In this document: piece after piece, positions 32,258-57,134 of the stretch
Layout: each line of letters starts with the position of its first letter
How positions within the stretch are numbered: the first letter of the stretch is position 1
Assembly (NCBI GenBank): GCA_050305975.1
Contig: JBNLGI010000188.1
Span: 186-64,185, forward strand
Reading direction: 5' to 3'
Length of the DNA stretch: 64,000 nucleotides
DNA from: Sedimenticolaceae bacterium
Lineage (GTDB): Bacteria > Pseudomonadota > Gammaproteobacteria > Chromatiales > Chromatiaceae
Made by a program: the position numbers and the translations under genes
Notes under the pieces: generated by a model
Database searches by the model: none
What the model saw: only the letters and a program-made list of their open reading frames with translations
What the model was told of the DNA's origin: nothing

Positions 32258-33145
32258 ATGAAAATCACTCTCCTCGGCCTCGGACTGATGGGGCGGCCGA
32301 TCGCACTGCGCCTGGTCCACTGCGGTCACGACGTGGTGGCCTGGAACCGTTCGCCGGAGCCGTTGGAGCGAGCCGCCGAAGCGGGGCTGAGCACCGAGGC
32401 GGACTTGGCCCGGGCGGTGGAACAGAGCGAGGTGATCATCCTCACCCTGAGTGATGCGACAGCGATCGAGAGCGTGCTCTTCGATCCCGCCCTAGTGCCA
32501 CTGCTGCAGGGCAAGACCCTGCTGCAGATGGGCACCATCGCCCCCAACGAGAGCCGCGCCATCGCCAAGCGTGTGTCGGAAGCGGGAGCCGAATATCTCG
32601 AGGCGCCGGTGCTCGGCAGCATTCCCGAAGCCCGCTCCGGTCAGTTGATCGTGATGGCCGCAGGCGCGGAACCGGCCTACCAGCATTGCTTGCTGATGCT
32701 GCGCTGTCTCGGCAAGGATGTGGAGCTGATAGGGTCCGTCGGCCAGGCCGCGGCCATGAAGCTGGCGATGAACCAATTGATCGCCGCGCTCACCGCCGGA
32801 TTCTCCCAAAGCCTGGGACTGATCCGCGCCGAGGGCGTGGATGTGGATCAGTTCATGGGGCTGTTGCGCGAGAGTGCGCTCTATGCGCCCACCTTCGATA
32901 AAAAGCTGCAGAAATTCATCGAGCACGACTACAGCCATCCCAACTTTCCCCTCAAACACCTGATCAAGGACCTCGGCCTGTTCAAGCAGGTGGCCGAGGA
33001 TTCGGGTATCGATGCGGCGATATCCGACGCCATGCTTTCGGTGTTTCTGAAAGGCCAGCAGGCGGGCTACGGGGATGAGGACTACTCATCGCTCTACGAA
33101 GCGATCAATCCGGGTTTCGATGCGGAGACCGACACCGGATGTTGA
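32258..33145 (+). CDS. NAD(P)-dependent beta-hydroxyacid dehydrogenase family protein
   Basis: LGLGLMG Rossmann motif, WNRS, EAPVLGS, AMKLAMN, FPLKHLIKD. Confidence 0.88.
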   Translation: MKITLLGLGLMGRPIALRLVHCGHDVVAWNRSPEPLERAAEAGLSTEADLARAVEQSEVIILTLSDATAIESVLFDPALVPLLQGKTLLQMGTIAPNESRAIAKRVSEAGAEYLEAPVLGSIPEARSGQLIVMAAGAEPAYQHCLLMLRCLGKDVELIGSVGQAAAMKLAMNQLIAALTAGFSQSLGLIRAEGVDVDQFMGLLRESALYAPTFDKKLQKFIEHDYSHPNFPLKHLIKDLGLFKQVAEDSGIDAAISDAMLSVFLKGQQAGYGDEDYSSLYEAINPGFDAETDTGC

Positions 33146-33148
33146 GTT

Positions 33149-33173
33149 TGCGCGGGGCGCGGCGCCCCGCGCC
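33149..33173. terminator. GC hairpin between convergent dehydrogenase and microprotein 1
   Basis: GCGCGGGGCG-CGG-CGCCCCGCGC. Confidence 0.6.
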
Positions 33174-33180
33174 GTGTAGG

Positions 33181-33261
33181 CTAACTCACGAGCAAGGCGA
33201 CGACGATGCCGAGAACGAGTAGGCCTAGGGAGCCGAGAATGGCTTTGTCACTGCCTAACAT
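33181..33261 (-). CDS. 26-aa hydrophobic microprotein 1 (MLGSDKAILGSLGLLVLGIVVALLVS)
   Basis: AAGGAGG 6 nt upstream; single TM helix; paralogue at 33860-33943. Confidence 0.75.
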   Translation of the reverse strand: MLGSDKAILGSLGLLVLGIVVALLVS

Positions 33262-33476
33262 GGTTGACCTCCTTCGATGACGTTTGCCGTTGAAAAAACC
33301 CAATGCGGTGTTGGGTACGGGATGGTGAACCAGGGTCCACCAGTTACAGTTGAGACATGATGTCATCCCAGAGGTTTTCAACTTTTTTACTGAAAAATAC
33401 AGGGTTTTTTACTCAATCCGCAGCTATCTGTCAGTGGACTTGCAGGTATGAAAACGACTGTGCGCAAGGCTTTCTC

Positions 33477-33794
33477 ATGAAACTGAACGATCCTTTCGGG
33501 CGTCTGGAGACGCGACATCAAAAGGGTTATGAATCGATGCGGGAGGCCCTTCGTCAGGGAGGCATCACCACACCGGAAGCGGCCCGGGAGGTGATGCGAC
33601 AGGCCGAACGACGGGCAGTGAGCCTGATAGCGATCAGCGTGGCGGTACTGCTGATAACGTCGCTCCTGTTGCCGAAGATGGCGCCGTTGGCGCTGGGACT
33701 GGGGCTGTTTCTGCTGGTCTGGGTCGCGACCTCGACCCTGAATGGCCGGCGCTACATCAAGCGCTATATCGAAGAGGAACTCAAAACGCCATGA
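33477..33794 (+). CDS. Hypothetical membrane protein (105 aa, two TM helices)
   Basis: MKLNDPFGRLETRHQKGYESMR...; two hydrophobic segments; host-like codon usage. Confidence 0.72.
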   Translation: MKLNDPFGRLETRHQKGYESMREALRQGGITTPEAAREVMRQAERRAVSLIAISVAVLLITSLLLPKMAPLALGLGLFLLVWVATSTLNGRRYIKRYIEEELKTP

Positions 33795-33829
33795 TGGCGG
33801 CGTGTGGCGCTTGAGCGATGGGAGTGTCT

Positions 33830-33853
33830 CGGGGCGGGATCTCTCCCGCCCCG
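33830..33853. terminator. GC hairpin between convergent membrane gene and microprotein 2
   Basis: CGGGGCGGGA-TCTC-TCCCGCCCCG. Confidence 0.6.
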
Positions 33854-33859
33854 GCTGAA

Positions 33860-33943
33860 TCATCCGATAAGCGCTATAGAGACGACGATACCGATGATGA
33901 GAATGGCGAAAGCGCCGAGCAGAGCCTTATCACTTCCAAGCAT
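33860..33943 (-). CDS. 27-aa hydrophobic microprotein 2 (MLGSDKALLGAFAILIIGIVVSIALIG)
   Basis: GGAGG 8 nt upstream; paralogue of microprotein 1. Confidence 0.75.
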   Translation of the reverse strand: MLGSDKALLGAFAILIIGIVVSIALIG

Positions 33944-34279
33944 GGTCTGGTCCTCCAAATGACGTACTGTTTGACAAGGAACCATCCGATACCGCTGAGG
34001 GGCATAGGATGATTTTATGACTGCGCTCAAGAATGTAATGAATCGGCGGCGGCGTTTAACTGACATCGGTCAATAAACCACGATTATTTTAGGGGTAATG
34101 TGGCGGCCATCGTGTGCTGAAAGCGGCTACGATGCTGAGCAACAAGCCTTACCTCGTCTTTGAAAGGCGCAGGAAAGGTTTCGAATTCCCGGCTCGATGG
34201 CTGCCCTTTCAGCGCGATTTCGTGTTAAAAAGAGCCCTCAATCGACAGGGGACGAGAGATCCCCGTTCAGGGGTCAAAC

Positions 34280-34960
34280 ATGCGTCTGTTCACCAGCGAA
34301 CTGCCCGGCCGGCACGAACGCCACCTGCTCAGAAAGCAGGACAATCCACTCTTTCCCGAAGCCCAGAGAACCATCAGTCAGAGTGAGTTGACCGAGGCCC
34401 AGCGTCTCGATCACGAGGAGTTGGAGGCCTATATCCGGGACCTGCGCAAACTGGTCGGCGAGGCCGTTGCGCTGGGACCTCATGAACAGAGCGACGTCAT
34501 CCTCGAGCTCAAGGAACGACTCGACCAGGCCTATGAAACCGCCTGTCGCCTGGCGGACGACCAGAGCCCCAACAAGGAGGCGATCCGCAAACTGGTGGCG
34601 GTGATCATGCGCGCGGTTTGGCAAGGGGCCGGCAACGACACCCTGGCGCATCAGGAGCTGGAGCAGGAAGAGGCCGCCCGCGCGGCCCACTACGAGCTGC
34701 TGGAAACCCCGCTGGTGGCCGACCTGCTCGACCCCGAATCGCTGATTCAGGCCGATGATCTGCTGGCGGTGCTGTTGAGCGCGGAGCGGGAGGGGTTCGA
34801 GGCGGCCGTCACCCTGTTCGATCCGGGTCAGCTCAGAGCGCTGTGCGAACAGGGCGCGACGTTGAAACGGGACGGCGAGGCGCTTGATGCCCTGCCCGGC
34901 GCCCGCGAACGGCTGGCTGAGCTGGAGCAGCTGCTCTCCTCGCTCGGCGGCAACGCCTGA
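34280..34960 (+). CDS. Hypothetical alpha-helical protein (226 aa)
   Basis: Host-like codon usage, acidic helical composition; no recognised family. Confidence 0.75.
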   Translation: MRLFTSELPGRHERHLLRKQDNPLFPEAQRTISQSELTEAQRLDHEELEAYIRDLRKLVGEAVALGPHEQSDVILELKERLDQAYETACRLADDQSPNKEAIRKLVAVIMRAVWQGAGNDTLAHQELEQEEAARAAHYELLETPLVADLLDPESLIQADDLLAVLLSAEREGFEAAVTLFDPGQLRALCEQGATLKRDGEALDALPGARERLAELEQLLSSLGGNA

Positions 34961-57120: not shown

Positions 57121-57134
57121 TTGATCCAGATCAA
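57121..57134. promoter_or_regulatory. FNR/ANR-type box
   Basis: Perfect TTGAT-CCAG-ATCAA in the arsR/gpmI divergent region. Confidence 0.68.

Follow-up and report, generated by a model that had tools for sequence, protein, structure and literature searches.

The subject of this analysis is a pair of small open reading frames (sORFs) on the minus strand of a 64,000-nucleotide stretch of DNA from a Sedimenticolaceae bacterium (contig JBNLGI010000188.1, positions 186 to 64,185; "the window" denotes this whole stretch), which encode paralogous membrane microproteins of 26 and 27 amino acids (aa). The pair had been picked out in a sequence-only reading of the window, and both sORFs were located by reading the strand from 32900 to 34200 and from the listing of open reading frames (ORFs). 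The two genes, here called A-type and B-type, and their immediate signals are the following.

33860-33943, minus strand: sORF2, the A-type microprotein gene (27 aa; polar head MLGSDKA, then one transmembrane helix to the C-terminus)
33181-33261, minus strand: sORF1, the B-type paralogue (26 aa; from the ORF listing and the strand reading)
33951-33956, minus strand: Shine-Dalgarno (SD) sequence GGAGGA of sORF2, 7 nt 5' of the ATG
33268-33274, minus strand: SD sequence AAGGAGG of sORF1
33959-33965, minus strand: ACGTCAT upstream of the sORF2 SD, with a GTCA motif inside
33277-33283, minus strand: ACGTCAT upstream of the sORF1 SD
33830-33853, minus strand: GC-rich hairpin directly 3' of the sORF2 stop, with a 10-bp stem and no U-tract, shared with a convergent 105-aa gene
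33150-33173, minus strand: GC-rich hairpin 3' of the sORF1 stop, between sORF1 and a convergent dehydrogenase gene

The features that had been described for the pair were all recovered. The peptides share 14 of 26 residues (54%), and within the common LGSDKA head five of the six codons differ synonymously (TTA/CTT, GGC/GGA, GAC/GAT, AAA/AAG and GCC/GCT), AGT being common to both. Each sORF has a strong SD at an ideal distance, the ACGTCAT motif just 5' of it and a GC hairpin downstream, and an ORF for a 105-aa protein with two transmembrane segments lies between them on the plus strand (33477-33794). Chance cannot account for such a pair. In the 3.98-Mb assembly (60.8% G+C), a six-frame motif scan found only these two copies, and a profile of the family matches exactly sORF1 and sORF2 in this genome, with E-values of 2e-13 and 7e-12.

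The translation signals are retained in relatives, the SD GGAGGAC being near-invariant among A-type loci and AGGAGG or GGAGG being conserved among B-type loci. Stems of 10-14 bp follow the stop codon in the folded A-type loci of other species that were examined. As further observations on the leaders, the GTCA motif is kept 4-8 nt 5' of the SD in A-type leaders across the genus, and the predicted sORF1 leader contains a terminator-like hairpin (33298-33316, minus strand) with a T-run (TTTTTT) to 33291, about 25 nt 5' of the SD. A similar weak stem with a T-run is present in the closest relatives (L114 and L144), not in the other clade; this hairpin may be an attenuator or a chance match.

Coding potential and distribution of the family

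Homologue searches were carried out with a profile built from five, and later from 22, sequences, and the relatives that were fetched represent 62 distinct loci with 60 different coding sequences and 54 different peptides. All 60 coding sequences have 26 or 27 codons without a frameshift or an internal stop, and their length differs only by one whole codon near the C-terminus. The mean column entropy for codon positions 1, 2 and 3 is 0.74, 0.18 and 1.43 bits, respectively, the pooled pN/pS is 0.31, and the median dN/dS, which had been proposed as a check, is 0.23 (487 pairs) and thus well below 1. The SD, the ATG and the stop are conserved, whereas the in-frame stretch upstream of the ATG is not (open frames of 27 to 105 aa). 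The periodicity by codon position, the dN/dS values and the conservation of SD and ATG without a conserved upstream extension point to purifying selection at the protein level, and on this comparative evidence sORF1 and sORF2 are real, unannotated protein-coding genes. ORFs of this type had been skipped by the gene callers.

Strong profile matches, with E-values down to about 1e-14, were found in 44 of 45 genomes of Candidatus Thiodiazotropha, often two per genome, 0.7-2 kb apart and on one strand. Members of this genus are sulfur-oxidising symbionts of lucinid clams and have also been recovered from Spartina roots. A profile search within the family Sedimenticolaceae returned matches in 43 of 44 genomes of the genus and a single weak match in the 335 other genomes. 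In a scan with a degenerate pattern, which covered one genome for each of 185,579 species, every match to an SD-bearing ORF of 26-27 aa belonged to the Thiodiazotropha/Sedimenticolaceae group; about ten further matches fall within long ORFs in unrelated taxa and are due to chance. Three remote look-alikes (L100, L130 and L139) stand in unrelated contexts, lack the promoter box described below and are of doubtful homology, and 241 million metagenome contigs added only three further pair loci. Judged by these searches, the family hardly occurs outside Candidatus Thiodiazotropha (Sedimenticolaceae).

Records of the peptides are correspondingly scarce. An exact look-up of eight peptides (the two of the window, three from elsewhere in the genus and the three remote look-alikes) in a collection of some 15 billion proteins showed that those of the window and the genus are absent and that only two of the remote look-alikes have an entry, both unnamed. 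The sORFs have no match in Pfam, NCBIfam or the sequences of the PDB (each at E-values up to 10), in PADLOC or in Rfam, and literature searches on small proteins of Thiodiazotropha found nothing. The suggestion of an unannotated microprotein family that is under protein-level purifying selection and matches no described family was therefore borne out, and the search for homologues across genomes and metagenomes that went with it yielded homologues with a preserved frame in 44 of the 45 genus genomes. The genomes carry two or three copies. In some of them an extra copy lies away from the main locus; one example (L117:6523-6603) has few genes around it and lies some 600 nt upstream of an ORF that, from the look of its sequence, we take to resemble a small heat-shock protein.

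The promoter of the A-type gene

The genus-restricted distribution is one of two results that go beyond the sequence-only reading; the other is a box of the FNR/Anr/Dnr type upstream of the A-type gene. The predicted promoter elements of the two genes are listed here.

34060-34073, minus strand: FNR/Anr/Dnr-type box TTGAC-CGAT-GTCAG, which matches 9 of the 10 half-site positions of TTGAT-N4-ATCAA
34032-34037, minus strand: predicted -10 hexamer TACATT (TAnnnT), which starts 30 nt from the box centre
33376-33381, minus strand: TTGAAA, a -35-like motif upstream of sORF1 that is conserved in B-type copies; a putative promoter element by its consensus only

An alignment of the A-type upstream regions revealed a near-invariant TTGAY-N4-RTCAG in otherwise diverged sequence, the half-sites being fixed and the four central positions variable. 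All but one of the 39 A-type loci have the box, which lies 121-152 nt 5' of the ATG. Two of 23 loci that had been sorted as B-type by their SD also carry it, both of them in the A position beside the gene for a 226-aa protein, and no true B-type locus has an FNR box. A TAnnnT hexamer starts exactly 30 nt downstream of the box centre in 38 of 40 distinct loci, without an indel across the genus, and the same aligned loci have no comparably conserved -10 element on the side facing the 226-aa gene. With the -10 hexamer at positions -12 to -7, the centre of the box comes to lie at about -41.5, which places the predicted transcription start near 34025 and predicts a 5' untranslated region of about 82 nt. 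A centre at -41.5 is the geometry of class II FNR-dependent activation at promoters of the FNR/CRP family. By this geometry, the A-type promoter is predicted in silico to be of the class II FNR/Anr/Dnr-dependent type. A sigma-70-like site from a simple scan, ATTACA-16-TAAAAT, was discarded; it is not conserved, and its first hexamer is better read as the FNR-type -10 element.

The box motif occurs 106 times in the window genome, compared with about 27 occurrences expected from composition, and the genes behind the boxes were identified for a checked subset. Boxes of the form TTGAY-N4-RTCAR cluster before genes of denitrification and the NO response, namely nirS, a nirE-like methylase gene, NnrS, two COX3-like (NorE-type) genes, two hemerythrin genes and a Crp/Fnr regulator gene next to the nir genes, and they also precede cydA (contigs C170, C208, C16, C172 and C244; loci L145-L153). 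A c-type cytochrome gene is likewise preceded by a box. Several of the genes preceded by a box have a TAnnnT hexamer 28-33 nt from the box centre. Together, these genes would outline an FNR/Dnr-type regulon in the window symbiont. At least ten Crp/Fnr proteins are encoded in this genome, one of which has an FNR-type N-terminal cysteine cluster. Within the window itself, a perfect palindromic box, TTGATCCAGATCAA, is situated at 57121-57134, 52 nt before a 517-aa ORF whose N-terminus, as we presume from the look of the sequence, resembles phosphoglycerate mutase.

A genus-specific insert and its neighbouring genes

The two sORFs and the gene between them are bordered by genes that are also found outside the genus.

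32258-33145, plus strand: NAD-binding dehydrogenase of the 3-hydroxyisobutyrate/tartronate-semialdehyde reductase type, one border of the insert
33477-33794, plus strand: 105-aa gene with two transmembrane segments and no known family, divergent from sORF1 and convergent with sORF2
34280-34960, plus strand: gene for a 226-aa protein without a known family, which borders the insert on the other side and has its conserved part from about 34370

Synteny is fixed in the genus, with hemE, the NAD-dependent dehydrogenase gene, the insert, the 226-aa gene and, further on, ppc. In sister genera the dehydrogenase and 226-aa genes are co-oriented, only 45-125 bp apart and without an sORF between them. 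This adjacency of the flanking genes indicates that the sORFs are part of an insert of about 1 kb that is specific to the genus. The sole genus member without the sORFs, G063, has a gap of 450 bp at the locus (L071:956-1408). Its gap holds only a long inverted repeat (AAAAACCGCAGTTG... paired with ...CAACTGCGGTTTTT), which is perhaps a small mobile element or one resembling repetitive extragenic palindromic (REP) sequences. The 226-aa protein, which has no match in Pfam or NCBIfam, has conserved counterparts in 64 of the 83 genera of the family that were sampled, and its alignments span about 192-195 residues, from which its true start is probably near 34370.

The layout was read in 45 loci, oriented with the sORFs rightward. 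In 44 of 45 genomes of the genus the A-type gene keeps its place next to the 226-aa gene and is transcribed divergently from it, and the B-type gene is an optional paralogue in a subset of the species. In most species the slot between the sORF positions is occupied by a gene for a hemerythrin (Pfam PF01814) of 144 aa, for example at L093:6346-6780 on the minus strand. The order 226-aa gene (leftward), A copy, hemerythrin gene (leftward) and dehydrogenase gene (leftward) was found in 12 complete and seven truncated loci, and the same order with an additional B copy after the hemerythrin gene in five loci. The 105-aa gene takes the hemerythrin slot, always together with a B copy, in eight complete loci and in partial ones. 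This gene is restricted to the window clade (12 of the loci searched) and has no FNR box upstream; for its product, the protein atlas gives only unnamed clusters, all with scores below 0.9, and no known family. The hemerythrin gene of the insert, in contrast, is preceded in all 25 distinct loci by an FNR box of its own, which matches at 9-10 of 10 positions and lies about 76 nt 5' of the start of the gene. The nearest hemerythrin homologue in the window clade is 46% identical, is encoded elsewhere in the genome and lacks a box. Taken together, the promoter predictions and the layouts suggest that the A-type sORF and the hemerythrin gene are two convergent genes for low oxygen and that the B-type gene is a differently regulated copy.

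DNA identity between A and B is 60-72%, with synonymous differences in all 16 pairs, and the identities within genomes resemble those between genomes (0.80 and 0.77 for the head, 0.52 and 0.53 for the helix). Co-evolution or gene conversion of A and B within one genome was rejected, as there is no greater likeness within than between genomes. Because all 16 pairs are only 60-72% identical and no closer within a genome, sequence divergence marks A and B as old paralogues without recent gene conversion. A role as leader peptide or attenuator was excluded for both, because what lies downstream of each sORF is a hairpin and then a convergent gene, not a co-oriented one.

Possible roles and related systems

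In the seven-residue polar head, M1 and A7 are invariant and G3 and S4 nearly so, position 5 is D, E or N, and position 6 is K, Q, N or R. The rest of the peptide of 26-27 aa is a single hydrophobic transmembrane helix that runs to the last residue, with a best 15-residue hydropathy window of 3.2. Within the helix, G10 and G18 never vary, S or A occupies position 22, and the peptide ends in G or S. Small residues recur with i, i+4 spacing in two ladders, 3-7-11 (G3-A7-A11, with G10 in addition) and 18-22-26 (G18-S22-G26), a pattern that would suit tight helix-helix packing. As the only charged residues are found at the N-terminus, this end is likely to lie in the cytoplasm, and the invariance of the head suggests a specific contact.

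We tentatively propose that the microprotein is an accessory or regulator of a larger membrane protein and acts by helix packing when oxygen is scarce, with rather less than even confidence in this particular role. The A-type gene would be switched on when oxygen becomes limiting or under denitrifying or nitric oxide conditions, the B-type gene would supply a differently regulated dose, and the peptide would pack against a membrane protein that is used under low oxygen and would stabilise or tune it. The sequence-only reading had left the choice between a toxin of the type I kind and a single-helix subunit or regulator. Fixed synteny, the conserved activator promoter of the FNR type, the lack of a conserved antisense RNA signal and of space for an antisense RNA gene, and an SD that is not consistently sequestered make the evidence lean towards the subunit or regulator.

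Several other explanations have to be weighed. That the conserved stretches are not protein-coding at all, and are instead small RNAs or promoter and terminator debris with a fortuitous open frame, could be argued from the sequence-based nature of the support for translation and from the failure of gene callers to report the ORFs. Comparative sequence makes such an RNA-only explanation very unlikely, given the strong three-base periodicity of the variation, a dN/dS well below 1, length changes by whole codons only, the conservation of SD, ATG and stop in 60 distinct sequences and the lack of an Rfam match. A less improbable alternative, though still an unlikely one, is a type-I-toxin-like or self-associating peptide. 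It would oligomerise via its small-residue face and, by depolarising or permeabilising the inner membrane, would slow growth at oxygen shortage, restrained by an RNA. The peptide is short and almost wholly hydrophobic, with a zipper-like face (G18-S22-G26), it is encoded in two or three copies per genome within a narrow taxonomic range, like the Ibs, Ldr and Zor families, and control by a stress regulator has its precedent in TisB and DinQ. However, the locus is fixed throughout the genus and not scattered, the hairpin takes up the roughly 60 nt between the stop and the convergent gene, so that an antisense RNA gene would not fit there, and the free variation at third codon positions speaks against a conserved antisense promoter inside the gene. 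Nor is the strong SD hidden consistently, its predicted probability of being unpaired having a median of 0.5 and a range of 0 to 0.77 in 40 loci, and no antitoxin-like RNA family was found in Rfam. At the level of sequence, the search for antisense RNAs that had been suggested gave no Rfam match, no conserved motif on the opposite strand and only about 60 nt of hairpin before the convergent gene. These points weaken the toxin reading without being decisive.

The neighbouring genes offer two candidate partners. The intervening 105-aa protein with its two transmembrane segments had been considered as a possible partner; its gene is a divergent neighbour of B-type copies and, in the loci read, never occurs without one. 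Nevertheless, it is found in one clade only and has no FNR box, the A-type and some of the B-type copies exist without it, and the co-occurrence is confined to one lineage and represents about one event. As a general partner it was not upheld, hemerythrin being present in the same slot in most species, and we consider it quite improbable that the microproteins work with the 105-aa protein. Somewhat less improbable, and still doubtful, is a unit of the microprotein and the neighbouring hemerythrin, in which the FNR-driven, oxygen-binding protein would be coupled to the membrane or to a respiratory complex for the delivery, buffering or sensing of oxygen. The A-type sORF and the hemerythrin gene are convergent neighbours in most species, both with FNR boxes, and among five genomes tested the hemerythrin type of the insert was present in both that have the microprotein and was not found in the three that lack it. 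In three hosts, a hemerythrin gene, which may or may not be the one of the insert, ranks within the top 100 symbiont genes by transcription (PMC13137333). On the other hand, a cytoplasmic head of seven residues offers little surface for binding a soluble protein, the window clade lost the hemerythrin gene from the locus and kept the microproteins, and the co-occurrence may merely reflect one shared insertion event. We likewise regard it as improbable that the insert as a whole is a genus-specific oxygen-limitation module that arose at the base of Candidatus Thiodiazotropha and in which the FNR-driven microprotein and the co-inserted FNR-driven hemerythrin act together; the microprotein itself may have arisen de novo. 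If this were true, the module would represent an innovation connected with living at the oxic-sulfidic interface in clam gills and on plant roots.

The explanation that we prefer as a whole, a real microprotein family confined to the genus, with an FNR-type promoter on the A copy and a packing role for the peptide, is one that we hold with moderate confidence. Several considerations weigh against it. All of the evidence for the microprotein genes comes from DNA sequence, the comparative counts all come from related genomes and hence are not independent, the transcription start of the A-type gene is a predicted position, and the Crp/Fnr proteins of the window genome, at least ten in number, are all candidate regulators for the box. 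The glycine-zipper-like face of the helix would also fit a self-associating, membrane-damaging peptide. In addition, no partner emerged among the cytochrome bd, cbb3, nifH and nirS candidates that were checked. Cytochrome bd was rejected, as the complete, single-contig genome G004 lacks cydA and carries two microprotein genes, and cydA occurs in many genera that do not have the microprotein. A substitute for CcoQ was rejected because the cbb3 operon has its own CcoQ-like ORF between ccoO and ccoP. Links to nitrogen fixation and to denitrification via nirS were also dismissed: only 27 of the 45 genomes of the genus have nifH, G063 has nirS without an sORF, and G008 has an sORF without nirS.

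Small membrane proteins are routinely missed by annotation, and none of the records that were checked for this uncultured and ecologically important symbiont genus contains the family. The link of the A-type copy to an FNR-type low-oxygen regulon is well-supported as a prediction, and together with the genus-wide conservation it provides a concrete hypothesis for lucinid gill data. If the partner is found, the microprotein could turn out to be a lineage-specific component of the symbiont's balance between oxygen and sulfide; the value of the finding is moderate until expression and a partner have been shown.

As a family the microproteins are new, and they belong among the small single-helix membrane proteins. 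The type I toxins Ibs, TisB and Ldr/Fst are likewise very short and hydrophobic, have several copies per genome and are narrow in range; in contrast to them, the microproteins have no evident antisense RNA gene, a locus that is fixed genus-wide, a promoter of the activator type and an SD that is not consistently hidden. CydX and CydH/YnhF of E. coli and CydP of the Burkholderiales (PMC9104464) are small subunits of cytochrome bd of 29-40 residues; like the microproteins they have a single helix, and they are made at low oxygen under control of the FNR/Anr type, as is predicted for the A-type gene. CydP is in addition restricted to one lineage and was long unannotated, as is the present family. 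The microproteins, however, have no sequence match to these subunits and are not encoded in or near a cyd operon, cydA being located on another contig. Since sequence similarity and cyd linkage are both missing and the microprotein genes are present in a complete genome without cydA, the microprotein is not a cytochrome bd subunit. CcoQ and CcoM are also small single-pass proteins of a microaerobic respiratory complex, the cbb3 oxidase, but the microproteins match neither in sequence nor by linkage, and the cbb3 operon of the window genome already has a CcoQ-like ORF. AcrZ, KdpF, MgtS and MgrB are small membrane proteins as well, each of which binds a transporter or a sensor and tunes it. Although the microproteins are unrelated to them in sequence and end with the helix, without a tail, they are alike in size, in having a single helix and in being encoded by stand-alone or stress-regulated genes, and the known members act by helix packing. 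CydX/CydH, CcoM, CydP, AcrZ and MgtS would thus be the models for the packing role that is proposed here.

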